Origin: Deltaproteobacteria bacterium
GTDB taxonomy: Bacteria; Desulfobacterota; BSN033; UBA1163
Assembly: GCA_037441765.1 (NCBI GenBank)
Contig: JBBIRM010000005.1
Span: 1,520-55,189, forward strand
Direction: 5' to 3'
Length of the DNA: 53,670 bases
The notes beneath the pieces are model-generated. The model saw nothing but the letters and a program-made list of their open reading frames with translations, searched no databases and was not told where the DNA came from. Position 1 is the stretch's first letter. Each line of letters begins with the position of its first letter. This document shows positions 18,223 through 48,230 of this stretch, piece by piece. The position numbers and the translations under genes are program-made.

Positions 18223-18495
18223 TTATTCTAATGCCCATTTCTTTAACCGCTCATAGTCCGTAGAACCACAGATCCATTTACCAGTCTTTTTGTTAAAGAA
18301 AAAAGGCACGCCTCCACAATACCCCTTATCATACTCTCTCATCAGTTTGGCATTGGCTTCATTGTGCCAGACTTCCAGTCTTGCCACTTTGACCCCTTCT
18401 TCATCCTCTAACCTCTCCACGAGAGGTTCCATCTTTTGGCAATGGGGTCATTCTGCGCCAGTAAATTCCAAGAGATAAAATTCTTCTTTGACCAT
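18223..18495 (-). CDS. Thioredoxin-fold (glutaredoxin-like) selenoprotein with a U-P-H-C redox motif
   Basis: The track ORF (69 aa) starts just after the redox motif. Extending upstream gives MVKEEFYLLEFTGAE-TGA-PHCQKMEPLVERLE, with the TGA (18448-18450) in the first position of a CxxC motif. SD GGAGG precedes ATG 18495 and a hairpin follows the TGA. Confidence 0.75.
18410..18428 (-). promoter_or_regulatory. SECIS-like hairpin of the thioredoxin-like selenoprotein gene
   Basis: The mRNA reads AACCUCUC-GUG-GAGAGGUU, a perfect 8-bp stem with a G/U-containing loop, starting 19 nt after the UGA. Confidence 0.6.
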
Positions 18496-20078: not shown

Positions 20079-20576
20079 TTAAAGATTGATATGAAGGTCT
20101 TTATACTTCTTTATATGTTCAACCAAACCCCCATCGCTCAAAATTCTTTTCATGGTATCTGGAATAGGAGAAAAAAGAATGATTTCATTCTTTGTGTGAT
20201 TTAAAACCTTTCCTTCATCAAGGAAAATCTCCAACTCATCTCCCCCACTGATTCTATTTGTATCGCAAATGATAGCAGGAAGGCCATTGTTGAAACAGTT
20301 TCGATAAAAGATGCGTGCAAAACTCTTTGCCAACACCGCCTGAATCCCATTCATCTTGATCACAATGGCAGCATGCTCCCGACTCGAACCTTGACCAAAG
20401 TTATCTCCTCCCACGATGAAATCCCCTGGCCTTACCTTCTCAGAAAAGCCTGGACTCTCATATTCCATAATATGCTTAGCCAGTTCTGGTAGATTGGACC
20501 TTAGATAAAAGTATCTTCCTGGAATAATATGGTCCGTGCTGATCCCGTCTCCAAACTTCCATGCTCTTCCTCTCAT
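20079..20576 (-). CDS. leuD: Aconitase-family dehydratase small subunit (LeuD/HacB type)
   Basis: 165 aa, short archaeal-type LeuD with GDNFGQGSSREHA. It lies 10 nt downstream of the leuC-like gene. Confidence 0.85.
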   Translation of the reverse strand: MRGRAWKFGDGISTDHIIPGRYFYLRSNLPELAKHIMEYESPGFSEKVRPGDFIVGGDNFGQGSSREHAAIVIKMNGIQAVLAKSFARIFYRNCFNNGLPAIICDTNRISGGDELEIFLDEGKVLNHTKNEIILFSPIPDTMKRILSDGGLVEHIKKYKDLHINL

Positions 20577-20586
20577 AAATTACTCC

Positions 20587-21840
20587 TCATAGATATTTTC
20601 TCGGGTCCGCGATCTTACCTTCAATGGCGGTTGCAGCAGCAACTGCAGGAGAGCCTAAATAGATAAATGATTCCGGACTCCCCATCCTCCCCTTGAAATT
20701 TCTTGGTTGGGTGGCTAAACAGACCTCGCCATCTCCTAAGACCCCTCCATGCAATCCCACACAGGCTCCACAACCAGGGGGGGTGATTAAGGCCCCTGAG
20801 GCAACTAAGGTTTCAATCGTGCCGTCTTTTAAAGCCTCCATATAAACTAAATGAGAACCAGGAGTAACAATCATCCTTGTCTTAGGATGAATAAATCTCC
20901 CCTTTAATATCTTTGAAGCGATCTGAAGATCTTCCAATCGTCCATTGCACGATGTCCCAAGAAAAACCTGATCTACCCTGACATCTCCGATTTCATCGAT
21001 AGTTTTAATATTGTCTACTTGATGTGGACAGGCAATGGTGGGTTTTAGGTCTTTTGCATTGATCCTTACGGTCTGCTCATAGGTTGCATCTGGATCGGGA
21101 AAAAGTTTTCTAAATTCATTTGACCTACCCATTCGATCTAACCACCCTTTGGTGATCTCATCAGAAGGGAAAAGCCCGACCTTTGCTCCTGCTTCAACAG
21201 CCATATTCGCAATGGTCAGCCTTCCGGCCATCCCAAGAGTTTCAATTGTATCCCCAGAAAACTCGAGGGCTTTGTAGGTGGCTCCATTTGATCTGATCTT
21301 CCCAATTAGATGAAGAATGATATCCTTCCCATAGACCCCTTCAGGAAGTCTTCCTTCAACCACAACTTGAATGGTTTCTGGAACCCTCAACCATATTTTA
21401 CAAAGTGCAATGGCAACTGCCGCATCGGTGGAACCAACCCCTGTTGCAAATGCACCCAGAGCCCCCCCTGTGCAGGTTTGGGTATCGGCGCCGTTTATCA
21501 GATCCCAAGGGTTCCCCCACCGCTCTGCTTCTACCGGGGGGGATATTCGTCACCCGAGTTCGGATACTGTTATTCCTGTCTTTTGAGCAAACTCCCTTAA
21601 AAAGATATGGTCGTTGCTCAGTTCAAACCTTGGACTTGGAGAGGCATGGTCAAAAAAGAAAATTGTCTTCTTAGGAGAACAGACCTTATCAAAACCCATT
21701 TCAATGATCTTCCTCACCGCTAAAGGACCAGTTCCGTCCTGGGTATAAGTGAGGTCAACATGAACCACCTTGATTTCGCCTGCACGAGCCTCCTCTCCTG
21801 CATGCTCACTCAGAATCTTTTCTGCCAACGTCATTCCCAT
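20587..21840 (-). CDS. leuC: Aconitase-family dehydratase large subunit (LeuC/HacA type) interrupted by one in-frame TGA at 21550-21552; Sec recoding or pseudogene unresolved
   Basis: The two track ORFs (96 aa and 267 aa) and the 159 nt between them form one frame: ...[70 protein letters not shown]... The C-terminal part has canonical GSCNGR and GCGACVG ligand motifs. The usual GADSHT reads GADTQT. Confidence 0.6.
21513..21543 (-). promoter_or_regulatory. GC-rich hairpin 6 nt downstream of the leuC in-frame UGA (possible SECIS)
   Basis: The mRNA reads UCCCCCCCG-GUAGAAGCAGAG-CGGUGGGGGA: 9 bp (8 of them G:C), one bulged U and a 12-nt loop. Confidence 0.4.
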
Positions 21841-21898
21841 AGGGGAACCTCTTCAATTTTTAAATAATTTTATAGCATAAATTTTTGATAACTTCACC

Positions 21899-21927
21899 TT
21901 GATTTTTTAAAAATCAGTCCTTATCTT
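21899..21927 (+). promoter_or_regulatory. Candidate hsp20 promoter overlapping a 17-nt palindrome
   Basis: TTGATT (21899-21904), a 17-nt spacer, then TATCTT (21922-21927). The palindrome TGATTTTT-T-AAAAATCA at 21900-21916 covers the -35 and spacer. Confidence 0.35.
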
Positions 21928-21952
21928 AAAATTAGAGAAAGGGGGTGTGATT

Positions 21953-22252
21953 ATGAACAACAGAACAAAATTTACCCCATGTGTCTGTGTCTCCCATGAT
22001 GACGAAAATGGACGTCTTAAAATCGAACTCGAACTTCCAGGAGTGGATAAAAAAGATATTTCCCTTGAGATGATGAAAGATCGTTTCTGCCTTTCTGCTC
22101 CGAGAGGAGAGGAGATTGAATATTCTGGCTGTTTCTGGTTGGCTCACGAAGTATTACCTGAAAAAGCAGAGGCGAAATTTGAAAGTGGTCTTCTCACCAT
22201 TTTCGTTCCAGTTAAGGAATTGGGAGAAAAAATTAATATCATGGTTCAATAG
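21953..22252 (+). CDS. Small heat-shock protein (minimal Hsp20/alpha-crystallin domain)
   Basis: Alpha-crystallin-like core (LKIELELPGVDKKDISLEM ... AEAKFESGLLTIFVP). SD AAGGGGGTG precedes ATG 21953; about 99 aa. Confidence 0.7.
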   Translation: MNNRTKFTPCVCVSHDDENGRLKIELELPGVDKKDISLEMMKDRFCLSAPRGEEIEYSGCFWLAHEVLPEKAEAKFESGLLTIFVPVKELGEKINIMVQ

Positions 22253-22276
22253 TAAGACACTATTAACTCTTCTTTT

Positions 22277-22314
22277 AAAGCCCTTCTAAAGAAATTTAGA
22301 AGGGCTTTAATTTT
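22277..22314 (+). terminator. Rho-independent terminator after hsp20
   Basis: Perfect 14-bp stem AAAGCCCTTCTAAA / TTTAGAAGGGCTTT with a GAAA loop, followed by AATTTT. Confidence 0.85.
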
Positions 22315-22371
22315 AAAAACAAATATAAAAATCCATTCTTTCATCCTAAATTCAATTTTAAAGAGATTTTT

Positions 22372-22387
22372 TGTAAAAATTTTCACA
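22372..22387 (+). promoter_or_regulatory. CRP/FNR-like inverted repeat upstream of the small Cys-rich ORF
   Basis: TGTAA-AAATTT-TCACA has one mismatch to the TGTGA-N6-TCACA architecture. It lies about 110 nt upstream of ATG 22497. Confidence 0.25.
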
Positions 22388-22496
22388 AAAATAAGTTTGA
22401 ACCAGTTAAGTTTAGTCGAAATGTAATGTTTTCGTTACGGAAGATTTACTTGAAATAGAAATTTAAATGGTTAAATTAATAAAAGGGGTGTTTAAA

Positions 22497-22622
22497 ATGA
22501 AAAAAACAAATAAAAAATCAAGTATAAAAAGTATTAAAAAACAACCAATAAAAATTTATGATTGCTGTTGGTATGAACCTTCTTATTCAAGACTCTGTTG
22601 TGGAGGCCTTTGCTGCTGTTGA
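22497..22622 (+). CDS. 41-aa Lys-rich / Cys-rich peptide (MKKTNKKSSIKSIKKQPIKIYDCCWYEPSYSRLCCGGLCCC)
   Basis: Not in the ORF track because it is under 60 aa. SD AAAGGGGTG lies 7 nt before the ATG. There are 7 Cys in the last 20 residues, arranged CC / CC / CCC. Confidence 0.45.
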   Translation: MKKTNKKSSIKSIKKQPIKIYDCCWYEPSYSRLCCGGLCCC

Positions 22623-22676
22623 TTGGGCTCAGCAGAAAGATGAAGAAGGTCAATATCCTGAAAGGGGTGAAAAAAA

Positions 22677-22841
22677 ATGTACGTAATCAAGGGGATTAAA
22701 CAATGCTCTTATTATGAGCTGGATGATAAAGAAGAAGTCTTATTGGTCCAAGTGGACCATTCAAAAGGGAAAAAAGAGGACTTCCTATTTAAACGTGAAA
22801 AGGTGGATTTCTTTATTCATCCAAGGGCAATCAGCGGGTGA
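22677..22841 (+). CDS. 54-aa hypothetical small protein
   Basis: MYVIKGIKQCSYYELDDKEEVLLVQVDHSKGKKEDFLFKREKVDFFIHPRAISG. It is preceded by the same SD-like AAAGGGGTG as the upstream peptide. I recognise no family. Confidence 0.35.
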   Translation: MYVIKGIKQCSYYELDDKEEVLLVQVDHSKGKKEDFLFKREKVDFFIHPRAISG

Positions 22842-22859
22842 AAGGTAGAAATTGACTCC

Positions 22860-24044
22860 TCAAGCCCTTCGATTATCAATGGGTACATATTCACAAGCCT
22901 GAGGACCACAGTAGGTTCCAATATAATCTGCATCAGGCCTATAGAGTTCAGGCTTGGATTGTGCTTCTGCAAATTTTTCTTCAATAATATGGGCTGTCCA
23001 CCCAGAGACTCTCGATATGGCGAATACAGGAGTGAAGAGATCGATGGGAATCCCCATCATATAATAGACCGAGGCGCTATAGAAATCGACGTTAGCATAA
23101 ATTTCTTTCCCTTTTAAACTTCTAAACTCCTCTTTTGTTGCTTCCTCAATGGCTTTGCTTAGTTCATACCATTTTAGGTTTCCTATCCGACTTGCAAGAT
23201 TTTTAGCAATTTCGCTTAGGATCCTCGCCCTCGGATCCACGGTTCGATAAACTGCATGTCCCATCCCCATGACCTTCCCACCTCTCCGAAGTTTTTCAGA
23301 AACCCATTCCTTCACTCGATCCAACTCCCCAATTTCAAGAAGCATCTTCATGACCTCACTGTTCGCCCCCCCATGAAGCTCGCCCGAGAGGGCCCCAACA
23401 GCAGCAACCACGGATGCATAAAGGTGAGCATGAGTGGAAGCAACCTCCCGGCCAGCAAAGGTGGATGCATTGAAGGAATGCTCTGCATGAAGTATTAGAC
23501 ATATATCAAAATCCCTATTGGTCTCCGCAGTGGGTGGAACACCAAATAACATATATAAAAAGTTTCCAGCATGATTGAGATCCAGAGAGGGGAGAATTGG
23601 ATCCATTCCTTTTCGAATTCTTTCCCAGGCAGAGACAATTGTTGGGAGTTTTGAAATGAGCCTTACAGCCTTTCTAAAATTTGCCTCTTTGGTTTCATCC
23701 TCCAATTCATGGTCATAACCTGCAAGCATGGATATCCCCGCTTGAAGAATGTCCATGGGATGGGTTGAAGCAGGCATTAGTTTCATCCAATCATAGATGG
23801 TTTGAGGAATACCTCTTTCTGATATCAGTTCTTTTTTAAATTTTTCTAAAGCCTCTGCTGTTGGGAGGTGATCCTTCAAGAGAAGGTAAGAGACCTCTTC
23901 AAAGGTTGAATGAGCGACGAGGTCACAGATATTGTAGCCTCGATAGATCAAATTTCCTCTCTCTCCATCAACATCTGAAATCTTTGTATCCGCAACTTTC
24001 ACTCCCCGAAGACCAATATTTTTTGCAATAATAATTTTTTCCAT
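22860..24044 (-). CDS. gltA: Citrate synthase (or 2-methylcitrate synthase), short type
   Basis: Citrate synthase motifs LHAEHSFNAST, GPLHGGAN-like (GELHGGAN) and MGMGHAVYRTVDPR. The start is likely ATG 24044 with AGGAAG upstream; the track start is a TTG extension. Confidence 0.85.
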   Translation of the reverse strand: MEKIIIAKNIGLRGVKVADTKISDVDGERGNLIYRGYNICDLVAHSTFEEVSYLLLKDHLPTAEALEKFKKELISERGIPQTIYDWMKLMPASTHPMDILQAGISMLAGYDHELEDETKEANFRKAVRLISKLPTIVSAWERIRKGMDPILPSLDLNHAGNFLYMLFGVPPTAETNRDFDICLILHAEHSFNASTFAGREVASTHAHLYASVVAAVGALSGELHGGANSEVMKMLLEIGELDRVKEWVSEKLRRGGKVMGMGHAVYRTVDPRARILSEIAKNLASRIGNLKWYELSKAIEEATKEEFRSLKGKEIYANVDFYSASVYYMMGIPIDLFTPVFAISRVSGWTAHIIEEKFAEAQSKPELYRPDADYIGTYCGPQACEYVPIDNRRA

Positions 24045-24061
24045 TTCTAACTTCCTCTCGA

Positions 24062-24772
24062 TCAACTTTCTTTTGGAAAGGTCATCTGTCCTCCATAGTA
24101 ACCTAAAAGAGTAACAATCGGGGTAAGAAGGAAGACCATAAGGAAGTAGAGGGGGCTCGTAATCTCATTTGACAAAATCCTCCATAAGATCAAAATGATT
24201 TCAAAAATGAGGAGCAGGGCAGAAAGCTGAATCTTCCTTTTAACAAAATAACTCATTTTAAGGCGATAATTGATCCACCATGTAAGTGCTCCAGTGGCCA
24301 TTGCAAAGGGAGAAGAGAGACTACCTAATAACAAGAGATAGAAAGCGGTCATTTCAAAGGAAGGGTTTCTGAATAAGAGATAGAGGAACAGGAATAAAGA
24401 GGAACCCATAATAAACGCAATAGGAAAGTGTACCATCATGGGATGAGGGTGTCGCTTGGCCATTGGAACCCTCTTGAGAAATTGCTGAAGATAGGGGGGG
24501 AGATGTTTTAATTCCTCAGAGACACCCTTCTTCAATCTTCCCACCTGTGGATAACGTTCAAGAACCTCTGCTCCATGAGGCGCTGCGAATATCTCTCCTG
24601 TGAGATCCTTCCCGGAAGAGTGTCTGTTCATATGGATTCCTTTAGACCAAAGAGGGCTTTTTGAGACATCATAGACTTTTTCTTCTAAGCAGATATATAC
24701 AGGTCTCCCTTCTTTCCCATTATAATAGGATAATTCTTCAGAATCGAATTCTTTCATTTTTTCCATGCTCAC
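24062..24772 (-). CDS. Cytochrome b5-like haem-binding domain fused to a DUF2231 membrane domain
   Basis: N-terminal b5-like domain (EELSYYNGKEGRPVYI ... HSSGKDLT ... APHG) and a C-terminal 4-TM DUF2231-like domain (HPMMVHFPIAF). The start overlaps the cytochrome c stop. Confidence 0.65.
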   Translation of the reverse strand: MSMEKMKEFDSEELSYYNGKEGRPVYICLEEKVYDVSKSPLWSKGIHMNRHSSGKDLTGEIFAAPHGAEVLERYPQVGRLKKGVSEELKHLPPYLQQFLKRVPMAKRHPHPMMVHFPIAFIMGSSLFLFLYLLFRNPSFEMTAFYLLLLGSLSSPFAMATGALTWWINYRLKMSYFVKRKIQLSALLLIFEIILILWRILSNEITSPLYFLMVFLLTPIVTLLGYYGGQMTFPKES

Positions 24773-25173
24773 TTCTTTTTGAGAGGAGATTTTGATGCTG
24801 AATATTCAACTACATAATAGACCAAACCCCAGCGCTCTTGTTCAGAGAGATGATCCCATTTAATCATGGAGGTATTGGGAATTCCCTTAGAAATTATCTG
24901 AAAAACCTTTCTAAGATCTCCTTTAGAGTAGGGCCACTGTTTAAAAGGTAAATTAAAGTCCCGTGGTGGAGGATTTAGTGAAGGGCCAAGCTGTCCCTTA
25001 CCGTCTCCCTTGATCCCATGACATGGGATACAGTTCTTTTCATAAAGTTTTTTCCCCTGGTTTAAAAGTTCAAGGTTTTTTGGGGGGATCTTTGTCTGTC
25101 CATTCAATATACAGGGTGAAGAAAGAAGAAAAATTAATATAATTAAGATCTTATCCAACAATGACTTTTTCAT
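24769..25173 (-). CDS. Monohaem cytochrome c (ActE-like position)
   Basis: Signal peptide, a single CIPCH motif and a distal Met region (NTSM); 134 aa. Confidence 0.75.
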   Translation of the reverse strand: MKKSLLDKILIILIFLLSSPCILNGQTKIPPKNLELLNQGKKLYEKNCIPCHGIKGDGKGQLGPSLNPPPRDFNLPFKQWPYSKGDLRKVFQIISKGIPNTSMIKWDHLSEQERWGLVYYVVEYSASKSPLKKK

Positions 25174-25183
25174 GTGGATCTCC

Positions 25184-26485
25184 TTATCTTAATGATCGCT
25201 GGGGGGATTCGATTCTTATCTCTTTTTTCTCTTTTTCTATCTCCCATATAGAAATTACAGGAAAGAATTTTGAAAAAAAGATAAAAGCCAGTGTGAACCC
25301 TGCACACAGACCTGCCATCATTGACCACTCAACCCAAGTTGGCATGTAGCTTCCTCTTAGGTAATGAAGACGAGGATGGGCAAGAGATGGGATAATGATG
25401 AGGAAGCGTTCAAGCCACATTCCGATAACCACTGAAATCGAAGTGATTAGGAGAAATATAGGTGTTCTCTTTAAGATCAGAAGTGGAAAGGGGATGATAA
25501 AACACAGAGTAACCATGCTCCAGAAAAGTGGAGCATATCTCCCCGTGATTTTACTCCACAGAACATTTAGCTCATGTGTTCCTCCTCCGTAGACTACGGT
25601 CAGATGTTCCGCAAAGGTAAAATAGGCCCAGAGAAGAGTAAATACTAGTAGAAGCAGTCCCATGTTATTGAAGTGGTAAGGCGTTAAATACTCCTCCAGA
25701 TGGTAAACCCTCCTAAGCAAGATCGTTACTATAAGAATTGTTGCGATGCCTGAGAAGATTGCTCCTGTAACAAAATAAGGAGCAAATATAGTGCTGTACC
25801 ACATTGGCTGGGTCTGCAACCCGAAGACCCAGGAGACCACTGTATGCACGCTTACAGCAATAGGAATAACTGCTATGCATAAAAATCCAACAACATTAAG
25901 AAGGACTTTCCATTGGTTTTCGGTTCCCTTCCATCCGAGAGAAAGGGGTTTATAAATCCACTTTCTTTTTGGAAAGATCTCTCTTAGCAACCCTATGTCG
26001 GGTATCATGAGGACATAGAGGAAGATGATGCTTACCGCGAAATAGGTCATAATGCACCCAAAATCCCATATCAATGGGGATTTAAACTGCGCATGAAGCG
26101 GGACCCAATAGAATCTTATGGATCTACCAAGGTCAAAGAGGATATTGGTTGGTCCAGCGGCAAGAGCAAAAACCGTAACTGCTTCGGCAGCCCTTCCAAA
26201 AGGCGTTCCCCATTTTGCATTAGTTATTCTTAATACTGCAGAGACAAGAGCCCCTGCATGGCTTATGCCGATGAAGAATACAAAGTTTACAAGATAAAGA
26301 GTCCAGGACATGGGGTGGCCCATCCCTGTCTTTCCAAGACCCCATTGGTACTGCCAGCCAAAGGCAAAAAAAGACCAGAGAAATATAATGGAGAGTGGGA
26401 TGACAGTCAACCAGAACCATAGGCTCACACGGGTCAAGGGCTTAACGATTTGACCGTACTTAATTGCAAGATTCTGGCTATCCAT
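25184..26485 (-). CDS. NrfD/PsrC-family integral membrane quinone-interacting subunit (ActC/QrcD-like)
   Basis: 433 aa with about 10 hydrophobic segments and NrfD-like sequence. It overlaps the FeS subunit gene by 8 nt. Confidence 0.8.
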   Translation of the reverse strand: MDSQNLAIKYGQIVKPLTRVSLWFWLTVIPLSIIFLWSFFAFGWQYQWGLGKTGMGHPMSWTLYLVNFVFFIGISHAGALVSAVLRITNAKWGTPFGRAAEAVTVFALAAGPTNILFDLGRSIRFYWVPLHAQFKSPLIWDFGCIMTYFAVSIIFLYVLMIPDIGLLREIFPKRKWIYKPLSLGWKGTENQWKVLLNVVGFLCIAVIPIAVSVHTVVSWVFGLQTQPMWYSTIFAPYFVTGAIFSGIATILIVTILLRRVYHLEEYLTPYHFNNMGLLLLVFTLLWAYFTFAEHLTVVYGGGTHELNVLWSKITGRYAPLFWSMVTLCFIIPFPLLILKRTPIFLLITSISVVIGMWLERFLIIIPSLAHPRLHYLRGSYMPTWVEWSMMAGLCAGFTLAFIFFSKFFPVISIWEIEKEKKEIRIESPQRSLR

Positions 26486-27173
26486 CTTTCCATTCCCCCT
26501 GTTTCAGGTAAAATACTCTTGGTTCTGTACCGAGTTCTTCCATCAGGCGAAATGCCCTGGGGCTCTTCGAAAGTAAATACACACGACTCTTTGGATCGTT
26601 TAGGTCGCCAAATGTGATGGCATCGGTTGGACATGTTTCAGCACAGGCAGGAACAACCTCTCCGTCTCTGATCCGTCTCTTCTCCTTCTTAGCAACCTCC
26701 TTTGCTTTCCGGATTCTATGGATACAGAAGTTACATTTTTCTGTAATTCCTTTCCTTCTCTTATAGACATCTGGGTTTCTTCCTCTTTTATACTCATTGG
26801 GCCAATCGGGAGCATGCCAATTAAAATAGCGAACCGTATAAGGACAGTTTGAGATACACATTCTAACCCCTATACAACGAGGATAGACCTGTGCCACTAT
26901 TCCTTCAGGGTTTTTATAAGTAGCCCTTACAGGGCAGACAATTGTGCAAGGAGGGTTGTCACACTGCATGCAGGGAATCGGGATAAAGTGCATCTTTAAA
27001 TCTGGATAATCTCCCTCAATCTCTCTTATCATATTCATCCAGAATTTCGCTCTACCGAGTTTTGCTTGTTTTTCTCCTGCGAAAGGGATGTTGTTTTCCT
27101 GTCGACATGCTACCACGCAGGCCTGACAGCCAGTGCATCTATCCAGATCGATCACCATTGCCCATCGATACAT
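26478..27173 (-). CDS. Four-cluster [4Fe-4S] ferredoxin subunit (PsrB/ActB2/QrcC-like)
   Basis: MVIDLDRCTGCQACVVACRQEN, CMQCDNPPCTIVCP, CIGVRMCISNCP and CAETCPTDAI. The start is probably ATG 27173 (SD AGGGG); the track start is a TTG extension. Confidence 0.8.
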   Translation of the reverse strand: MYRWAMVIDLDRCTGCQACVVACRQENNIPFAGEKQAKLGRAKFWMNMIREIEGDYPDLKMHFIPIPCMQCDNPPCTIVCPVRATYKNPEGIVAQVYPRCIGVRMCISNCPYTVRYFNWHAPDWPNEYKRGRNPDVYKRRKGITEKCNFCIHRIRKAKEVAKKEKRRIRDGEVVPACAETCPTDAITFGDLNDPKSRVYLLSKSPRAFRLMEELGTEPRVFYLKQGEWKDG

Positions 27174-27235
27174 CTTAACCCCTTTCATATAAAGTTGACC
27201 GAATATGGAGAAATTCTTTTCCCTTCTCAACCACC

Positions 27236-29632
27236 CTATACGTTTTTTCTCGCCTTATATATCTTAACCCTCGTTGAAAAGTGAGAAAGAAATCCCCCTA
27301 AGTAATCATATTCCTTAACCAAAATATCATTTGGATTAACCCCTCTACCTTTCGCCCACCGTCCATAGGCCCGATGCCCCTGACCATATGGCATTTGAAG
27401 GCAAGCAGGATGTGTACCTGGAAAGAGTCGCACATGAGTCTTTAGCCGGCCTTTTACGGATTCTATCCAAACAGGGTCACCATCTTTTAGCCCCAATCTT
27501 CGGGCAGTCTCAGGATTGATCTCTACCCAAGAATCCCATCTCTCATAAAGATGGGGGCCAAAAATCTCCTGGAGATAAGGTTGATTTGCCCCTCTTCCTT
27601 CAGCAGATGTCATCGGTTTATAATGGATGAGGTGGAAAGGATAATCCTTTTTGTCTCCAATAAAACAGGGTTTCTCAAAGTGGGGAAGAAAGACCTTATC
27701 CCCTTTTACTTCGATCTTTAAATCCCTTAGAATTGTATCAAACGATTTTGAAGTTTTATGGGCTAATTCCCTCAACCCCTGCCTCAGGAGTTGGGAATAG
27801 AATTCAAACTTACCTGATGGTGTATTAAATTTAGCCCTCCATTTACCAAAAGGGTAGGTCTCCTCCCACCATCCTCCTATTTTAGTGATTTTATTCCAAA
27901 ACCCATCAAAATCCTTTTCAAGAATTGAGCCCCTTTTTGAACTGAATATCCCATAAAAGGCCTCTTTCAATGCTTTCTCCATATTCTCCCAGGGAAATGA
28001 TTTTGCAACGCTTCCCCCAATTTCCTTCGCAAGCGAAATCAATACATCTCCAGTATTTCGAACGTTATGAATCGGTTTGGAAAGGATGGGTTGTCTTATT
28101 CCAACCATTGGAAAGCCTAAGCCGGGTTGAGGAACATCATCCTGCCATCGTTCAAAATATGTTCCATCTGGAAGTATTATATCAGCATACTCCGTTGTTT
28201 CATCCATAAAGGGTGAGAAGCTAACAATGAACGAAATCTTCTCGATAGCAGAGAGTAGCTTTTCTGGTTCAGGAATACTGAATAAGGGATTTGTATAATA
28301 AAGAAAGAGAGTCTCTATAGGATAGGGATCCCCTGCCTCAATTCTTTCCGGTAGAATGTAAGGAACCTCTTGGGCAAAAGGAAAGGGAATCTCTCCTGCC
28401 CCATCAATACGAGGTTGAGAGAGTCCCTTTTCTGAAAAGGAGTCTCTTTGAACAGGAGGCCATTTTTTAAAATTGGGCTTTCTCTGAAGAAGAAGCCCAC
28501 CCTGACAATCAATTGATCCGACCAGGGCGTTGAGACAATCTATAGCCATTTGGCTATAGGTCCCATTGGTCTGCATCCCAACACCTCTCCCTGAAATGGC
28601 AATTGAAGGTAGGTGGGATGAAAACTCTCTCGCTACATTTACAATTACCTCTTCAGAAACCCCTGTAATTGAAGATACCTGTTGTGGTGAGTAATCCTTG
28701 AGGACTAGGTTTTTAAACCCAAGATGTTGTCTTCCCTCTGAGTCTTTCCAGTCCTCAAAGCCAAAGGTATAACGGGAAACAAACTCCTTATCATATCTTC
28801 TCTCTTTAATGATCCAGTGTGCAATTCCAAGGGCAAGGGCCCCGTCTGTTCCAGGCTCAATGGGAACCCACTGGTCGGCTTTCGATGCTGTAAGAGAGAA
28901 CCGAGGTTCAATCTGAACAAGTTTTCCTCGAATGCCAGGTCTTCCCCTTCTGAAATGACCATACCCCCAAAGATTTCTAAGGGAGGGCCGGGAGGCCTCT
29001 AATAGACTCGCACCGAAGGAAAGAACATAATTGACTTTCTCCCAGTGGATTGCCAGAAAATCATTTTCACCCATAGTAAAGAAGTGGCCTTTCAGTATCC
29101 CTTCTGAACCCCTTGAGGAGTTACCAAGATGGTTTGGTGAACCATAAGCCTCCATGAATCGGGAGACCAGATCAAACATATGGCCCCGATATCTTCCTCC
29201 CCAGAAGACCACCTGATGGGCTCTTCCCCTCATGCGGAGCCCTTTTAAGTTTTCAGCAACAATACGAATCGCATCGTCCCATGAGATTCTTTCCCACTTT
29301 CCTTCTCCACGTTTACCTTTTCTTCTTAGAGGAGATGGGATACGGTCAGGGTCATAAAGGACCTGAAGCCCTGCCTGACCTTTTGGGCAGAGTCGCCCTC
29401 GGTTTATTGGATAATCTTTAATTCCTTCTAACTTGACAGGCCAACCATTAACCGATCTGACTCGGAGGCCACAGCCACCAGGGCATTGAAGGCAGATCCC
29501 AGTTGACCAGTATTCTTCATAGGGAATCCACTCTCCTTCAGAGGGAAGTGCATAAAGGATTTCCTCAGGGAGAGCTATCCCAAAGGTTGCTGCGCCTATC
29601 ATCTTAAGGAGATCTCTACGTGAGATTCTCAT
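27236..29632 (-). CDS. Tat-exported molybdopterin-oxidoreductase-family large subunit (PsrA/ActB1/QrcB-like)
   Basis: Twin-arginine signal MRISRRDLLKMIGAA. The N-terminal FS0 motif C-x2-C-x3-C-x27-C is complete (CLQCPGGC ... LCPKG). 798 aa. Confidence 0.8.
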   Translation of the reverse strand: MRISRRDLLKMIGAATFGIALPEEILYALPSEGEWIPYEEYWSTGICLQCPGGCGLRVRSVNGWPVKLEGIKDYPINRGRLCPKGQAGLQVLYDPDRIPSPLRRKGKRGEGKWERISWDDAIRIVAENLKGLRMRGRAHQVVFWGGRYRGHMFDLVSRFMEAYGSPNHLGNSSRGSEGILKGHFFTMGENDFLAIHWEKVNYVLSFGASLLEASRPSLRNLWGYGHFRRGRPGIRGKLVQIEPRFSLTASKADQWVPIEPGTDGALALGIAHWIIKERRYDKEFVSRYTFGFEDWKDSEGRQHLGFKNLVLKDYSPQQVSSITGVSEEVIVNVAREFSSHLPSIAISGRGVGMQTNGTYSQMAIDCLNALVGSIDCQGGLLLQRKPNFKKWPPVQRDSFSEKGLSQPRIDGAGEIPFPFAQEVPYILPERIEAGDPYPIETLFLYYTNPLFSIPEPEKLLSAIEKISFIVSFSPFMDETTEYADIILPDGTYFERWQDDVPQPGLGFPMVGIRQPILSKPIHNVRNTGDVLISLAKEIGGSVAKSFPWENMEKALKEAFYGIFSSKRGSILEKDFDGFWNKITKIGGWWEETYPFGKWRAKFNTPSGKFEFYSQLLRQGLRELAHKTSKSFDTILRDLKIEVKGDKVFLPHFEKPCFIGDKKDYPFHLIHYKPMTSAEGRGANQPYLQEIFGPHLYERWDSWVEINPETARRLGLKDGDPVWIESVKGRLKTHVRLFPGTHPACLQMPYGQGHRAYGRWAKGRGVNPNDILVKEYDYLGGFLSHFSTRVKIYKARKNV

Positions 29633-29695
29633 CTGTTTAGTTTTGAATTCGAAGCTCTGAGTTTTGAAATTTGATTTTCCCCTTCTCCCAACGGG

Positions 29696-30247
29696 TTAAC
29701 TTGAATGACATGTATAACAATCTGTATCTGCACCACTTTTTTTGTGGCAATCCATACACCAGTCCATATAGTTTCTGTCCACCATCTTAACAGGTCTCTC
29801 ATTGAGGCCTGTCACCCCATGACATACAGAGCAATCGATCTCTCTTCTTATATGGATCCAGTGAGGAAAGACAACAAATTTGGGAAGTTCATACATCCTT
29901 TTCCATGGGATTTCTCTACCTGACTGCACATATCTTACAACTTTAATGGCCTCTGGCTTTTTACTTATCGAATCTGTGAAATGACATGCCCTGCAGACCT
30001 CGATATTGGGTATTCCTGCAACCCTGTAATTCTCTGCATAGCGATGGCAAAAGATGCATTTCAGATTTACCACCTCTTTATGTCGGAGATGGTTAAAAAG
30101 AACAGGCTGATTGACTGATACCCAACTATAAATTGGAAAAATGGAAAAGAGGGCCATTTGAGTTTGAACCCGAAATCGATGATAGGAGATAATTGCAAAA
30201 AGGATTAGAATGATGAGAACTAAAAAAAGGATGAAGGTCTTTTTCAT
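29696..30247 (-). CDS. Membrane-anchored pentahaem cytochrome c (ActA-like)
   Basis: N-terminal TM helix and five CxxCH motifs (CIFCH, CRACH, CSVCH, CMDCH, CYTCH); 183 aa. Confidence 0.8.
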   Translation of the reverse strand: MKKTFILFLVLIILILFAIISYHRFRVQTQMALFSIFPIYSWVSVNQPVLFNHLRHKEVVNLKCIFCHRYAENYRVAGIPNIEVCRACHFTDSISKKPEAIKVVRYVQSGREIPWKRMYELPKFVVFPHWIHIRREIDCSVCHGVTGLNERPVKMVDRNYMDWCMDCHKKSGADTDCYTCHSS

Positions 30248-30318
30248 AACTTTTTTACACCTCTACGATACTTAATGCCAAAGCCTCCAGACAAGTTAAA
30301 TAGATTAAACCCTGTATT

Positions 30319-31230
30319 TTAATACAAAAAATAATGTATTTGTCCAAATATTAGCCTGTCAAGTAAAAAACATACCATGATAAGTAAGATATAGAGATTG
30401 ATGGCTCTGGAGATTGTCCGATGGTTCCATCCTTGATGTCGGGAGATCAGAATTTTATATGCACTCCGTAATAAACCTCCTCCTACGCTGAATAATCCTC
30501 CCGATATGACCGGAGTTTTTAGAAGACCAAACATCGGAACAAGGAAACAGGTTATCCCTGTTGAAAAGAGCCAGACAAATAGAATCCTATTAAACTGGTA
30601 TTGATTAAATAGTCGGATTAAAGTAGGATATCCTACTTCTTCATAATCCTTCCTGAATTGGAATTGAAGAATCCAGAAATGCGGTACCTGCCAGATATAA
30701 AAGAGGAATGAAAGGATGAGTATTTTAGGGTCCCAAAGATCACCTCCTCCGAATGTCCAACCTATTATCGGTGGGATCGTACCAATTAATGCCCCGGGAA
30801 TAACTGCAAAGGCTGTAATCCTCTTGAGAGGTGTATAAATGAAATGATACCAGATGAGAGCAAAAGCACAAAGAAGAATTGCAATCCAATTTGTCCAATA
30901 GAAAATTATAAATCCTCCTAATAGAATCAAAAAAAGAGAAAGTTTCAGGGCAAAGATCGGTGTTATCCTTTTTGACGGAATTGGACGACCTTTTGTCCTA
31001 TCCATCCGTTGATCATATTCTCTTTCTTGGAATTGATTAAGTCCACAAGAACCTGAGGCTAATAAGAAAACTCCTATAACCATTGGAATGATCTCGATTG
31101 AGATTTCTGACCTTGCAAGGATAAAGCCTGTTATCGCAGAAAGAGTTAAAAATACTGAAATTTTGAATTTTGTAAATTCTAAAAGAATCTTCATCTGTAA
31201 TGCCACACTTACCTGGAGATTATTCCTCAT
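30319..31230 (-). CDS. ctaB: Protohaem IX farnesyltransferase (haem O synthase)
   Basis: UbiA-family membrane protein with LNQFQEREYDQRMDRTKGRPIPS. It sits directly after the cox genes. Confidence 0.85.
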   Translation of the reverse strand: MRNNLQVSVALQMKILLEFTKFKISVFLTLSAITGFILARSEISIEIIPMVIGVFLLASGSCGLNQFQEREYDQRMDRTKGRPIPSKRITPIFALKLSLFLILLGGFIIFYWTNWIAILLCAFALIWYHFIYTPLKRITAFAVIPGALIGTIPPIIGWTFGGGDLWDPKILILSFLFYIWQVPHFWILQFQFRKDYEEVGYPTLIRLFNQYQFNRILFVWLFSTGITCFLVPMFGLLKTPVISGGLFSVGGGLLRSAYKILISRHQGWNHRTISRAINLYILLIMVCFLLDRLIFGQIHYFLY

Positions 31231-31267
31231 TCTAACCTTTCGTAAGCCCCTCTCCCAGAGTGATAAA

Positions 31268-32185
31268 TTATTTTAAGCCCTTAATATATTGAATGATCTC
31301 TTTCATCTCCGACTCCTTCAAGATCCCTTTTTGAGAAGGCATGATAGGTGGAAACCCTTTTACAATATCCACATTAGGTTCTAAAAGTGATTTCCTTAAA
31401 TAGGCCTCATCTGCTATGATCTCTCGCTCCCTCCCTTCTGTTACAACCACAACCTTTTCCCCGAAAAGACCCTTCAGGGTAGGCCCTATAAGTTTAGTTC
31501 CATCAATACTGTGGCAGACTTTGCAGCCTTTCTCCTCAAAAAGTCTAAGACCTGTAGGGAGGGCCGCTACCTCCCTCGGTCTTTCTTCTTCATACCATTT
31601 TTGGAAATCCTCTTCCTTAAGTACGATTACTTTCGTAAGCATATAGGAGTGTTGGACTCCGCAATATTCTGCGCATAGGACATCATAACTTCCTGCCTCT
31701 GGTGCCCTAAACCAAAGATGATTTACCATCCCAGGGACAACGTCCTGCTTGACCTTAAAGGCAGGTATATAAAAACTGTGGATTACATCCTGGGAGGTAA
31801 GGGCTAAATGAATTGCCTTTCCTAAAGGAACTATTAATTCAGAACTTTTTAATCCATTTTCATATTCAAATAACCAGGACCATTGTCGTGCTGTAACTTT
31901 AACCCTCATGGCACCTTCGGGAATCTTCTTTAGGTAATGAAATCCCTTTAACCCATAAAAGAACATGGTGAGGACGAGAAGGGTTGGAACAATTGTCCAA
32001 AAGATTTCTAACCATTTTCTCCCTACGATGTTTTCAGGTTGGGGATGACGCCTTCTATGATATCGAAGGACAAAATAAACCATTAAAAAAGTGATTAGGG
32101 CCAGAAGGAAGACAGCAATTAAAGCGATATAGAGAAAAACATTTTCCACCACTCTGCTGGAAAAGCTGATAGAGGTTGAGAACAT
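31268..32185 (-). CDS. coxB: Cytochrome c oxidase subunit II with a fused C-terminal cytochrome c domain (caa3 type)
   Basis: Two N-terminal TM helices, the CuA motif CAEYCGVQHSYM and a C-terminal CKVCH haem c domain. Confidence 0.9.
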   Translation of the reverse strand: MFSTSISFSSRVVENVFLYIALIAVFLLALITFLMVYFVLRYHRRRHPQPENIVGRKWLEIFWTIVPTLLVLTMFFYGLKGFHYLKKIPEGAMRVKVTARQWSWLFEYENGLKSSELIVPLGKAIHLALTSQDVIHSFYIPAFKVKQDVVPGMVNHLWFRAPEAGSYDVLCAEYCGVQHSYMLTKVIVLKEEDFQKWYEEERPREVAALPTGLRLFEEKGCKVCHSIDGTKLIGPTLKGLFGEKVVVVTEGREREIIADEAYLRKSLLEPNVDIVKGFPPIMPSQKGILKESEMKEIIQYIKGLK

Positions 32186-32197
32186 TTCCTTTTCACC

Positions 32198-32491
32198 TCA
32201 TCGGAGAACCACATCAAAGAATGTTAAACCAATGAAGAGAATAAGAAGGACCAGGACCCCTGGAACCATCCATTTAAATAGTCTTAGCTGTTTCTCATAT
32301 TTTAGATGCATAAAGTAACTCAACACCAATCCCGATTTAATGCCAGCAATAAGGAGAGCAATACAGATCCCCCACCGACCCAGGTTCATCCCTGCAATGG
32401 ATACCGTGGCCCCTGTAAGAAGGAGCAATTCCAGCCAAACCAAAAAATAGATTTTTTCACTTATCGGTGATGAACTTCCCTCATTCGCCAT
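32198..32491 (-). CDS. Small membrane subunit IV of cytochrome c oxidase (CoxD/CtaF-like)
   Basis: 97 aa with three hydrophobic segments, located between the subunit III and subunit II genes. Confidence 0.5.
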   Translation of the reverse strand: MANEGSSSPISEKIYFLVWLELLLLTGATVSIAGMNLGRWGICIALLIAGIKSGLVLSYFMHLKYEKQLRLFKWMVPGVLVLLILFIGLTFFDVVLR

Positions 32492-32500
32492 TCCATCCCC

Positions 32501-33103
32501 CTATCTAATTAAATAGAAGAGTGGAAATAGAAAGATCCAGATGATATCCACCAGATGCCAATACAATCCGGAATTCTCAAGGGGAATAAAGTCTACCTCG
32601 TTTACCTTTCCCTTAACCATTAAAACTCCCATAATCAATAGCACTACCAGCCCGACCAGGACATGAAGGGCATGAAGCCCTGTCATCGAATAGTAAAGAC
32701 CATAAAAGAGAACCTCTCCTTTATCCCTTTCCAAGAGCCGAGGAGAATTGGGATAGATTTCATGATAAATCTTTTCAACCCATTCAAAGTATTTGATTGC
32801 AAGAAAGGTGAAGCCTAAAAGGAGGGTCGCTGCAAGGAAGACCAAAGAAGATTTTCCTTTCCCATTTTTAAAGGACGATATAGAAACCGCCATGGTCAGA
32901 CTGCTAGTGATCAAAAAGATAGTATTGAGGGTTCCAAGGGGTCTATTAAGTTCCCCTGCGGCAAGATGAAAACTCAACGGATGTTTAAACCGATAGACAG
33001 AATAGAGAATAAACAGTCCTCCAAATAGAAGGATCTCTGAGAGAATAAAAAGCCACATCCCTGTCTTAGAGCCAATTTTTTCTTTATGCTCAATCATATT
33101 CAT
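32501..33103 (-). CDS. coxC: Cytochrome c oxidase subunit III
   Basis: 200 aa polytopic protein with subunit III-like motifs (LFILSEILLFGGLF ... YWHLVDIIWIFLF). Confidence 0.85.
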   Translation of the reverse strand: MNMIEHKEKIGSKTGMWLFILSEILLFGGLFILYSVYRFKHPLSFHLAAGELNRPLGTLNTIFLITSSLTMAVSISSFKNGKGKSSLVFLAATLLLGFTFLAIKYFEWVEKIYHEIYPNSPRLLERDKGEVLFYGLYYSMTGLHALHVLVGLVVLLIMGVLMVKGKVNEVDFIPLENSGLYWHLVDIIWIFLFPLFYLIR

Positions 33104-34706
33104 AAGGTCCTTTTTTTACAATTGGTATCTCCTCAAAATTTTCTTTTGGGGGTGGGGATGGAATCTGCCATTCAAGAGTTGCTCCTCCCCAGGGGTTGCT
33201 TCCTACCATTTCCCCCCTAAAAAGTGAAAATAATAGATTTATAAACATCAGAATCAAACCTGTAATAAGAACCCAAGATCCAATCGTGGAGATCAATTGA
33301 AGTGTGTGAAATTGGGCGAGATAGTCATAATATCTTCTGGGCATTCCCTCCCAACCTAAAATGAACATTGGGAAGTAGAGAATGTTAAATCCAATAAATA
33401 GTAATGCCCATGAGAGATATGGAATTCTTCTCTTAAACATCTTACCAAACATCTTTGGAAACCAGTAGTGAAGGCCCCCAAAAAGAGCAAAACCTGTTCC
33501 TCCAAAAATGACATAATGAAAATGCCCCACGACCCAGTAAGTATCATGGAGATGGACATCGGTGGCAAGGGCACCCTGAAAAAGGCCTGTCAATCCACCT
33601 ATAGAAAAAAGAAAGATGAATGTAAGGGCAAATAGGAGAGGCGGCTTCAACTCTATTGACCCTTTATATAATGTGGCCACCCAGTTGAATACCTTAACCG
33701 CGCTCGGAACAGCCACAAAAAAGGTTAAAAAGGAGAAGATCAGGCTTACCAAATCACTCTGGCCACTTACAAACATATGATGGCCCCATACCAGCGAACC
33801 CACACTGGCAATGGCAAGGCTTGAAAAGACAATGGCTTTATATCCAAAGATCGCCTTTCGAGCAAAAACTGGGATTATTTCTGAGATTACTCCCATGGCT
33901 GGAAGAATCATGATATAAACTGCTGGATGGGAATATATCCAGAAGAGATGCTGGTAGAGAATAGGATCTCCCCCTTTCGCAGGGTCGAAAATCCCAACCC
34001 CTACCAGTCTCTCTAATAAGGTAAGAAGCAGTGTAATCCCAATTACTGGAGTAACAAGAATCTGTATCCATGCAGTAGCATAGATACTCCAGACAAAAAG
34101 GGGTAGTCGGAACCAACTCATTCCAGGTGCCCGAAGCCAGTGGATGGTAGTCACAAAATTGATTCCGGTAAGAATGGAAGAGAAACCGAGAATAAATACA
34201 GAAACCACTGCAAGAGGAACATTGACCGTAGTGCGAAGACTATAGGGAACGTAAAAAGTCCACCCTGTATCAATGGGGCCACCACCTGTAAACAGGGAGA
34301 TGATGGCCAAAGAGGCACCCGCCATATAAATCCACCAAGAGAGGAGATTTATTTTTGGAAAAGCAACGTCCCTTGCACCAATCTGGATAGGCATAAAGAA
34401 ATTTCCAAATATAGATGGAATTCCAGGGATGACAAATAGAAAGATCATGATCACCCCATGTAGGGTAAAGATGGCATTATATGTCTGGGGTTTCATGATT
34501 GTGGAACCTGGTGCCATTAATTCCAACCGCATTAAAAATCCGAGGGATACTCCAATTATAAAAAAGAAGAGAATGGATATAAGGTAAAGAAGACCTATTC
34601 TTTTATGATCGGTTGAGAAGATCCAGCCCAGAATTCCACCAAACCCGCCCTTCGATTCGTAAAAATTGATTCCTGATTTGTACTGTTTCGATAGTTCTGC
34701 CATCAC
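33090..34706 (-). CDS. coxA: Haem-copper oxidase subunit I, A2 subtype
   Basis: Contains WGHHMF and GHFHYV. The FWIYSHPAVY motif carries the Tyr-Ser pair in place of the GHPEVY glutamate, as in A2-type caa3 oxidases. 538 aa. Confidence 0.9.
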   Translation of the reverse strand: MMAELSKQYKSGINFYESKGGFGGILGWIFSTDHKRIGLLYLISILFFFIIGVSLGFLMRLELMAPGSTIMKPQTYNAIFTLHGVIMIFLFVIPGIPSIFGNFFMPIQIGARDVAFPKINLLSWWIYMAGASLAIISLFTGGGPIDTGWTFYVPYSLRTTVNVPLAVVSVFILGFSSILTGINFVTTIHWLRAPGMSWFRLPLFVWSIYATAWIQILVTPVIGITLLLTLLERLVGVGIFDPAKGGDPILYQHLFWIYSHPAVYIMILPAMGVISEIIPVFARKAIFGYKAIVFSSLAIASVGSLVWGHHMFVSGQSDLVSLIFSFLTFFVAVPSAVKVFNWVATLYKGSIELKPPLLFALTFIFLFSIGGLTGLFQGALATDVHLHDTYWVVGHFHYVIFGGTGFALFGGLHYWFPKMFGKMFKRRIPYLSWALLFIGFNILYFPMFILGWEGMPRRYYDYLAQFHTLQLISTIGSWVLITGLILMFINLLFSLFRGEMVGSNPWGGATLEWQIPSPPPKENFEEIPIVKKGPYEYD

Positions 34707-35497
34707 TTCATCCCCTTTTCGGGTTTTCTTCTTCCACTAAAAATAAGGAAGAAGATAAAACCAAGGGCAAATACTAAAATAATAACCCCAGTTACTTTCA
34801 AAGTATTAAATACATATTTTCTCCCTTTAGGGTCATAGCTGAAACAGAATTGTAATATCCTATTGATAGTGGGGCTAACCTTCCCCTCCGAGGCTTCTAA
34901 GAGAGCCATTTTTAAATCGAAAGGGAGAAAATTCATCCCATAGATATATCGGGTAATTTTCCCCTTAGAAGATAGAATGACTAATGCGACAGGATGTTGG
35001 AAAACCTCTCCTTCCCTTCTGAAATGAAAGCCTACAGACTCGGTTAATTTCTGGATATTCTCATAATCACCCGTTAAAAATCTCCAGGCATCTTCTGGAA
35101 AGGGCTTTTGGATCATCTTGACATAGAGTCTCTTCTTTTCGAGGGCGAGCACAGGGGTCTCTGTCTCATCAAAACTGATTGCTAATATTCTATATTCCTT
35201 ACCAGGCTCAGCAGGCAGTTTATTTATCACCTCGGCAAGATTATATAATAAAAGACCGCACACATCGGGACAGGAAAAATAGACCAAAACAAGGATGACA
35301 GGGGTCTGGATCAATTGCCCAAGGGATACCAAATGATTAGTTTCATCCCTGAACCTTAAATCAAGGGGAATGGTTTGTGTTAATCTTTCATCTATTCCTA
35401 TCCCCTTGGGATCTTTAGGAATTTCCTTATAGGAATGAAGATTGAGTGGGAAAATGATGGAAATGATAAAAAGAAAGAAAATAAAGTAAATTTTCAT
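34703..35497 (-). CDS. SCO1/SenC copper chaperone
   Basis: Signal/anchor sequence and a thioredoxin-fold CxxxC motif (YFSCPDVCGLL). Its stop overlaps the coxA start (ATGA). Confidence 0.8.
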   Translation of the reverse strand: MKIYFIFFLFIISIIFPLNLHSYKEIPKDPKGIGIDERLTQTIPLDLRFRDETNHLVSLGQLIQTPVILVLVYFSCPDVCGLLLYNLAEVINKLPAEPGKEYRILAISFDETETPVLALEKKRLYVKMIQKPFPEDAWRFLTGDYENIQKLTESVGFHFRREGEVFQHPVALVILSSKGKITRYIYGMNFLPFDLKMALLEASEGKVSPTINRILQFCFSYDPKGRKYVFNTLKVTGVIILVFALGFIFFLIFSGRRKPEKGMK

Positions 35498-35582
35498 ACC
35501 AGATAATCCGGAGCCTTTTTATCCTACCGCCAAACTCCCAAAGAAATTCTAATCAATGATTAAATTTGCAGGACTTAAAAAA

Positions 35583-35610
35583 ATTATATTATATTAAAGT
35601 TAAAAATCAA
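35583..35610 (-). promoter_or_regulatory. Candidate sigma70 promoter of the SCO1-cox-act-like string
   Basis: On the minus strand: TTGATT (35610-35605), a 16-nt spacer, then TATAAT (35588-35583), about 85 nt upstream of the SCO1 ATG. Confidence 0.4.
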
Positions 35611-35657
35611 CCTAAAGAAAACGATGGGATATTTTTTAAGACAAAGAGATAATTTAT

Positions 35658-38183: not shown

Positions 38184-38492
38184 TTTTTAAAACCCCTCTC
38201 TAAATTATCTTACACAATCATTTTAAATTCAAAGTAATTTTTCATGTAACACCTCACTCATCCGGGGAATCGGGTAGGGATGTAAAGGCATTCTATTAAC
38301 CGACCCACTATATAAGATTTTTGGAAATATTACTACCCGATTCATATAGTTCCCTCCTTCAGTGTGCCATTACTTTTTCATCCAAAGGGATGGGGGAGTC
38401 ACCGACCCCCCAAACGAACTGATCCAGGCCTTTCTTGAATCCCTTAAAATTACTAAAAAAGAGGTGTGACTAATTCCAGGAAGGTCAAAAAG

Positions 38493-39497: not shown

Positions 39498-39528
39498 GAT
39501 ATATCCTCCATTTAATTAAAATCTAAGT

Positions 39529-40323: not shown

Positions 40324-40373
40324 ATACCTTACCTCCTGAGAGGGCGATAAACATTGAACCCCTCATCGCCAAG

Positions 40374-42407: not shown

Positions 42408-42437
42408 TATGACCTCCTGATGATTTGCCTTTGAACC

Positions 42438-42929: not shown

Positions 42930-42930
42930 A

Positions 42931-43767: not shown

Positions 43768-43824
43768 CGATATTTCACCTCTAAATGATCACATTCATCA
43801 TCAAAATAGGTAGACATAGGAGTA

Positions 43825-46800: not shown

Positions 46801-46908
46801 GTCGAGTGCAGCCTGAACACCGCTGATCCCGCCTCCCACCACCATCACATCACCAAAATTCTTTGTCGCCAGCCTTTTAAAAAATTGTTCCAATCTCTCT
46901 TCTTCCAC
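43825..46908 (-). CDS. bamE: HdrA-like FAD/Fe-S protein, selenocysteine-containing, about 1027 aa (BamE-like)
   Basis: The 71-aa and 933-aa track ORFs are in one frame: ...[17 protein letters not shown] ... [44 protein letters not shown]... The TGA (46693-46695) aligns with the second Cys of the HdrA CSxC(ILAPK) motif. There are further dinucleotide-binding motifs ([12 protein letters not shown]) and several 4Fe-4S motifs. Confidence 0.85.
46660..46677 (-). promoter_or_regulatory. SECIS-like hairpin of the bamE-like gene
   Basis: The mRNA reads CUGGUC-GAGGUC-GGCCGG: 6 bp including two G:U pairs and a GGU-containing loop, 15 nt after the UGA. Confidence 0.4.
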
Positions 46909-46975
46909 TTCTCTTTAACCTCGTCTCTGATTTTAAACAGGGCTCACTTAACACTAAATCCTGATAACCCCAGCT

Positions 46976-48227: not shown

Positions 48228-48230
48228 ACG

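Follow-up and report, generated by a model that had tools for sequence, protein, structure and literature searches.

An in-frame TGA in a HacA/LeuC-type gene of a deltaproteobacterial draft genome: on comparative evidence not a selenocysteine codon, but either an artefact of sequencing or assembly or a recent disruption of the gene

The large-subunit gene and its partner

The window analysed here is a stretch of 53,670 nt from the draft genome of a deltaproteobacterium (assembly GCA_037441765.1). On its minus strand, positions 20587-21840 hold a large-subunit gene of the HacA/LeuC type (aconitase/IPM-dehydratase family) with 417 codons plus a stop. The gene is broken at codon 97 by a TGA (21550-21552, minus strand), the sole in-frame stop, which leaves ORFs of 96 and 267 amino acids. 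An earlier note, made from the sequence alone, had described one frame with a lone TGA, a split into these two ORFs, and LeuC-like sequence between them; our reading of the ORFs agrees. The same note had proposed that the TGA might encode selenocysteine (Sec) and mark a new selenoprotein family, or that the gene might be a fresh pseudogene or reflect a sequencing problem.

Family membership over the full length was supported by the NCBIfam model NF001614 (513.7 bits; cut-off 385) and by TIGR01343 (499 bits; cut-off 386). The intact orthologue from the same genus scored 558.6 bits with NF001614. The scores of the window gene exceed the subfamily cut-offs of the archaeal-type isomerase/homoaconitase models (NF001614, TIGR01343, and TIGR02086) and stay under the equivalog cut-offs of both LeuC (432 vs 611 bits) and HacA (418 vs 550 bits). 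All three cysteine ligands of the [4Fe-4S] cluster (C298, C357, and C360) are kept; C357 and C360 were invariant in 22 of 22 sequences, and C298 lies in a G-T-S-C-N-G-R block conserved among close orthologues.

An intact small-subunit gene of the LeuD/HacB type (20079-20576, minus strand; TIGR02087, 187 bits) lies directly downstream. Its dN/dS against the same-genus orthologue was 0.068. The best model was LEUD_arch, with a score over the cut-off; HacB2_Meth gave 179 bits, under its cut-off of 230. The substrate-loop region of the small subunit reads G-R-Y-F-Y-L-R-S.

The nearest solved structures are those of LeuC (4KP1/4NQY) and HacA (4KP2) from Methanocaldococcus jannaschii, and the intact orthologue matched 4NQY over its full length (E = 1.5e-117). 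The three cluster cysteines and the adjacent LeuD/HacB-type small subunit are shared with the M. jannaschii enzymes. Unlike the archaeal-type LeuC/HacA proteins, which carry G-V-C-H-Q, the orthologue group of the window gene has G-I-S-H-Q. Within this group, only the window copy is interrupted by a stop and has lost the conserved His, Ser-His, and Gly. The genome also holds a second intact leuC, a possibility raised in the earlier note: a canonical leuCD pair is located on another contig (C38:18281-19534) and shares 42% identity with the window gene.

Orthologues and the column of the TGA

About 110 orthologues were compared: 13 from genomes, 73 from public metagenomes, and 26 database proteins. 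The 13 genomic sequences were recovered by searching 40 related genomes in all six frames; they come from the same genus and family and share 74-88% identity with the window gene, the closest (88%) being of the same genus. A close orthologue was absent from 11 of 24 genomes of the same family. In the sister genomes the frame that is disrupted here is intact.

The orthologues align with the window gene without an indel and give the consensus G-x-G-I-S-H-Q-V-V-A-E ... P-G-D-V-V-[IV]-G-A-D-S-H-T-C-T-G-G, in which codon 97 is the variable x directly N-terminal of the invariant G-I-S-H-Q. It had been suggested that, with a two-residue indel, the UGA coincides with, or adjoins, the Cys of a G-[IV]-C-H-Q motif. 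In the indel-free alignment the UGA stands before G-I-S-H-Q instead; the residue equivalent to that Cys is a Ser in this subfamily, and it is present in the window gene as S100.

No stop was found at the TGA column in any of the 13 genome, 73 metagenome, or 26 database orthologues; the single TGA is that of the window gene. Among the metagenome orthologues the residue is mostly aromatic or aliphatic (Y23, F15, L12, S7, W4, C3, E3, N2, Q2, K1, and M1). Other orthologues have K, F, N, S, Y, L, Q, E, or D, and the database proteins K, M, F, Q, L, S, or C. Cysteine occurs in only 3 of 73 metagenome and 1 of 26 database sequences. The same-genus orthologue has Lys (AAG) at this column and M. jannaschii LeuC (4NQY) has Glu. 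The column is therefore variable and non-catalytic, and the UGA is not aligned with Cys or Sec in the homologues. Sense codons for residues other than Cys or Sec at this position are what the earlier note had named as refuting its Sec reading, and the new selenoprotein family that it had proposed is not supported. The altered segment as a whole was shared by none of 2942 homologues from a collection of 5.8 billion proteins; the best match had 81% identity over residues 60-160.

An indel hidden in a C7 run had also been considered. The length and frame of the gene equal those of its orthologues, and neither of the other frames restores G-I-S-H-Q. Compensating frameshifts in the C7, G5, and G7 runs were examined as well and rejected: the other frames read VTNIPPGRSRAVGEPLGSD... 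and NSGDEYPPR* (asterisk, stop).

One public-metagenome orthologue (Ga0209427_10001566, L083:1501-2751) has an in-frame stop of its own at a different column, reading ..KTIN*VGEV.. where KTIDEIGEV is usual. This stop corresponds to truncated database proteins of 282 amino acids.

Catalytic residues

The damage to the gene extends beyond the stop codon. The change of G-A-D-S-H-T to G-A-D-T-Q-T, pointed out earlier, is present in the window gene (codons 120-121, Ser-His to Thr-Gln; 21478-21483, minus strand), whereas Ser-His is kept in 73 of 73 metagenome orthologues. Codon 101, the His of G-I-S-H-Q, has become Pro (21538-21540, minus strand). The segments G-I-I-H-Q...G-T-D-S-H-T of mitochondrial aconitase (5ACN/7ACN) and G-I-S-H-Q...G-A-D-S-H-T align without a gap, which makes codon 101 the equivalent of aconitase His147 and codons 120-121 the equivalents of Ser166 and His167. 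From established structural work we take His147, Asp165, Ser166, and His167 (aconitase chain numbering) to be active-site residues. In the window copy they correspond to Pro, Asp, Thr, and Gln, so that only the Asp is kept.

None of the 73 metagenome orthologues, and none of the 21 homologues, departs from G98, H101, S120, or H121. The motifs G-I-x-H-Q and G-x-D-S-H-T are present in the orthologues and missing from the window copy alone. A product made by read-through would be catalytically crippled, whichever residue was inserted at codon 97.

Selenocysteine decoding and the hairpin

The genome is a draft MAG of 278 contigs (2.97 Mb, 43% G+C, 94% complete) in which a tmRNA is present; its named relatives are Syntrophaceae/Thermodesulfobacteriota MAGs. 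A tRNA-Sec (C19:15428-15522) and an intact selB (C54) were identified, and selA is present with an in-frame TAG. The organism uses selenocysteine, with UGA at established Sec sites in at least seven of its genes. Three of these genes lie in the window on the minus strand: HdrA (46693-46695), MvhD (43711-43713), and a Trx-like gene with U-P-H-C (18448-18450). The others encode FdhA (CARL-U-HSS; C73:3564), GrdB (C91:2202), and two peroxiredoxins (C11:1852 and C238:362).

Seven SECIS elements of this genome were used as controls. Each has a hairpin within 10-22 nt of the UGA, a stem of 5-8 bp, and a G-containing loop of 3-6 nt (GGGCU, GGG, AGGG, AGGU, GUU, GUG, and AGUU or UGAAUU, some assigned by inspection).

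The hairpin reported downstream of the window TGA is real. It spans 21513-21543 on the minus strand and consists of UCCCCCCCG paired with CGG-U-GGGGGA (arms 21535-21543 and 21513-21522, one bulged U) around a 12-nt apical loop, GUAGAAGCAGAG, with GU at its start. It begins 6 nt past the UGA, has a predicted stability of -17.5 kcal/mol, and places the loop 18 nt from the U. Statistically it is unexceptional: the 45-nt element had z = -1.75, 12 of 200 shuffled sequences (6%) were equally stable, and in a 91-nt context z was -0.42. In the orthologous 45-nt segments, that of the same genus included, the hairpin was absent (-9.7 to -12.9 kcal/mol, z about 0). Both of its arms are made by substitutions particular to the window copy (CAT>CCC, CAG>CCG, GCG>GGG, and AGG>CGG). 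A search against Rfam gave no match at the hairpin; the HdrA and MvhD SECIS controls gave none either, and the search has no power here. The idea that an ancestral hairpin had been perfected as a quasi-palindrome is not supported: the orthologues do show a weak TCTCGC/GCGAGA pairing, but the window copy forms its stem in another register.

The arrangement resembles the fdhF-type SECIS of Escherichia coli and the FdhA, GrdB, peroxiredoxin, HdrA, MvhD, and Trx-like genes of the same genome in having, no more than about 20 nt past an in-frame UGA, a hairpin rich in G:C pairs with GU at the start of its loop. Unlike the real selenoprotein genes of this genome, the window gene has its UGA away from a Cys/Sec column, a UGA that is not conserved, a 12-nt loop, and a destroyed active site. 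A UGA followed by a hairpin is insufficient as evidence of recoding, even in a genome that uses selenocysteine, and the orthologue column needs to be checked.

A tract of clustered substitutions

The TGA, the hairpin, and the lost catalytic residues all fall within a 94-nt tract (21478-21571, minus strand; codons 90-121) of clustered, transversion-biased substitutions that was seen solely in this assembly. Against the same-genus orthologue the tract has 35 mismatches, 27 of them transversions and 8 transitions. The background comes from an alignment of 16.7 kb with the contig of the same genus, which has 3144 mismatches (1911 transitions, 61%; 1233 transversions). For the core of the tract (21478-21556; 22 transversions, 7 transitions) the difference from this background was significant (Fisher p = 7e-5), and the tract holds the most transversion-dense 75-nt window of the 16.7 kb (21 transversions; mean 5.5, SD 3.0).

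When the changes were polarised from the sister species and read on the plus strand, A>T (8), T>G (7), and C>G (5) made up 20 of the 35. The types A>T, A>C, C>G, and T>G together account for 16% of the changes elsewhere in the alignment (Fisher p = 6e-8).

The dN of codons 90-121 was 0.263, about five times that of the upstream (0.057) and downstream (0.053) flanks. Sixteen of the 35 substitutions in the tract alter first or second codon positions, whereas the differences in the flanks are almost all at third positions and give a dN/dS of 0.03-0.06, which indicates strong purifying selection outside the tract. Third-position divergence is raised within the tract as well; its borders are sharp, and it contains no indel. 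Ten changes unique to the window gene hit columns that are invariant in close orthologues, and seven of these sit in residues 98-121. Four (G98R, H101P, S120T, and H121Q) are at columns invariant in all 21 homologues, distant LeuC paralogues included. In a DNA alignment of the two genes, 18 bases were unique at otherwise invariant columns, and 8 of the 18 lie within 21483-21549. Since the flanks are under purifying selection and the small subunit is intact, the gene had been kept under selection until now, and the tract would be a single, recent, unselected lesion.

A comparable tract was sought in a 132-kb alignment with the sister genome, from which 33 transversion-dense windows were listed. 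Three others of these were inspected; they lay in intergenic DNA, in variable protein segments, or in runs of N, and none was a second tract of this kind.

Other interrupted genes in the assembly

The window gene is not the only conserved gene of this assembly with an unexpected stop. The TAG in selA (C19:12573-12575; L001:2068-2070), which reads ..LSRYG*EKEPT.., is a single T>A change from the TTG of the same genus; the remainder of selA is conserved, S-G-D-K-L-L-G-G-P-Q-A-G included. Either way the stop counts against Sec at codon 97: a real one would leave the strain unable to make selenocysteine, and a false one shows that nonsense errors occur in this assembly. Given at least seven intact selenoprotein genes, the selA TAG is probably a base error.

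Two more genes that are conserved and intact in sister species carry nonsense changes here, one for a Radical_SAM_N2 protein (GAG>TAA) and one for a DAO oxidoreductase (CGA>TGA). In-frame stops interrupt further conserved domains: a TGA in a Peripla_BP_6 gene, a TAA past the receiver domain of an NtrC-type regulator, and a TGA plus a TAG in a DHDPS-family gene. The stops outside selA are at C8 about 44662 (minus strand), C201:1414-1416, C148:263-265, C95:7979-7981, C153, and C31. Two in-frame stops directly adjoin N-runs. The screen was crude, and the true count of such stops is probably higher. The DHDPS-family gene on C153 was dropped as a test case for nonsense changes, because its closest match in a sister genome has 26% identity and the changes cannot be polarised.

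The window tract and the base errors of draft MAGs are alike in being confined to a single assembly, in looking unselected, in having a biased spectrum, and in occurring together with other nonsense codons and with stops at N-gaps. Unlike the single-base nonsense changes elsewhere in the genome, the tract is far denser, with 35 differences in 94 nt and no indel.

Origin of the tract

On the comparative evidence, the in-frame TGA is not a selenocysteine codon, but stems from an error in sequencing or assembly or from a fresh break of the gene. The suspicion of a fresh pseudogene or a sequencing problem voiced in the earlier note is thus supported in substance, although the lesion is a 94-nt tract rather than a lone nonsense codon or a homopolymer indel. 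The tract is unique to this assembly, tightly clustered, skewed in its spectrum, and destructive, and neither its TGA nor its hairpin is conserved.

We favour, with a probability of roughly 0.6, a local base-calling or assembly error that left a poorly supported consensus in the draft MAG. Such an error would have put a stop at a variable, non-catalytic codon within an otherwise well-conserved gene, and the same error would have replaced four invariant residues, two catalytic histidines among them. The C7 and G5 runs would have arisen in the tract by chance and would then pair as a hairpin. The strand-asymmetric A>T, T>G, and C>G changes (plus strand) could reflect the loss of a single-channel signal during two-colour Illumina base calling. 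In two-colour Illumina chemistry A carries both dyes, C the red, T the green, and G is dark, so that any miscall in a single channel is a transversion; loss of signal turns A into T, C into G, T into G, and A into C. The spectrum of the tract would fit such a loss if a two-colour instrument had been used, a match that rests on general knowledge of the chemistry. We know of no natural process that would introduce about 20-35% substitutions over 94 nt without an indel and with this A>T/T>G/C>G asymmetry, and we infer a technical rather than a mutational cause. The organism itself then most likely has an intact gene with G-x-G-I-S-H-Q...G-A-D-S-H-T.

Three observations do not sit easily with an error. 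Errors at about 20-35% of the bases in 94 nt, with no indel among them, are unusual in an assembled consensus; the lack of a second such tract in the windows inspected from the 132 kb alignment means that this is not a frequent artefact of the assembly; and the orthologue is missing from about half of the related genomes, so that a real loss would be tolerable. An independent copy from the species was looked for. Protein searches for exact copies of the two ORF products (96 and 267 aa), of the small subunit, and of the neighbouring Hsp20 gave no match, nor did an exact search of metagenome and genome collections with 39 nt of the tract, and protein-guided scans returned nothing above 88% identity.

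A recent knockout of a dispensable paralogue is a serious rival to an artefact, and we consider it a real if lesser possibility. The gene would be a genuine and very recent pseudogene, made by one complex event (for example, an error-prone repair patch) that changed some 17-20 bases in 94 nt, and the rest of the operon would have yet to decay. The sequence itself contains the stop and lacks catalytic residues that are otherwise invariant, and the canonical leuCD pair on C38 is intact. The gene is evidently dispensable, given the 11 of 24 genomes of the family in which no close orthologue was found, and the orthologue Ga0209427_10001566 has been broken elsewhere by its own stop. With no second tract among the windows inspected from the 132 kb, there is also no sign of a systematic artefact. 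However, no bacterial mutational process known to us fits both the density and the strand-asymmetric spectrum. Ordinary decay spreads over a gene, whereas here the flanks retain their low dN/dS and the small subunit is intact. Other suspicious nonsense codons occur in the assembly, that of selA included, despite at least seven intact selenoprotein genes.

Recombination or gene conversion, in which the tract came from some donor such as a diverged homologue or the template repeat of a diversity-generating retroelement (DGR), would explain the sharp borders, the absence of an indel, and the rise of third-position divergence along with that of the first two positions; it is nevertheless very unlikely. 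A functional donor would have retained G98, H101, S120, and H121, and the tract was found in 0 of 2942 homologous proteins. No donor or template repeat was detected in the 94%-complete genome, where the best candidates were chance matches of 12-17 nt, and the changes are not adenine-specific, unlike those made by DGRs.

Least probable of all is a new Sec codon with a new SECIS-like hairpin in a species-specific, neofunctionalised aconitase-family selenoprotein whose active-site histidines have been replaced: the tRNA-Sec, intact SelB, a SelA gene, the seven or more genes with UGA at known Sec sites, a stable hairpin with a GU loop start at a distance within the range of real elements, and arm-building substitutions that coincide with the TGA all favour it, but relatives do not have Cys or Sec at this column, where TGA occurs in 0 of about 110 orthologues, the hairpin is missing even in the same genus and is matched by 6% of shuffles, its 12-nt loop compares with 3-6 nt in the seven real elements, a protein made by read-through would be without counterparts of aconitase His147, Ser166, and His167, selA itself has an in-frame TAG in the assembly, and other conserved genes are likewise cut by TAA or TAG stops. 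If it were true, a new selenoprotein family would exist within a major enzyme superfamily; the evidence says otherwise. With nonsense codons in conserved genes, selA included, the base-level quality of this MAG is suspect, and its other single-stop candidates for recoding need confirmation at the level of reads.

Relatives and gene neighbourhood

The G-I-S-H-Q subfamily extends beyond the bacteria. Matches on genome contigs of Candidatus Methanoperedens and other Methanosarcinales archaea share 63-68% identity with it. These copies are closer than the organism's own canonical LeuC (42%), which suggests that the pair of large- and small-subunit genes may have been transferred between domains.

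In the same-genus genome (contig C61) the subunit pair adjoins a bam-like gene block without intervening DNA. In the window the two are about 13.5 kb apart (20108-22110 and 35655-51252), and the intervening stretch (22110-35655) carries a string of respiratory genes, a citrate synthase gene, and an Hsp20 gene.
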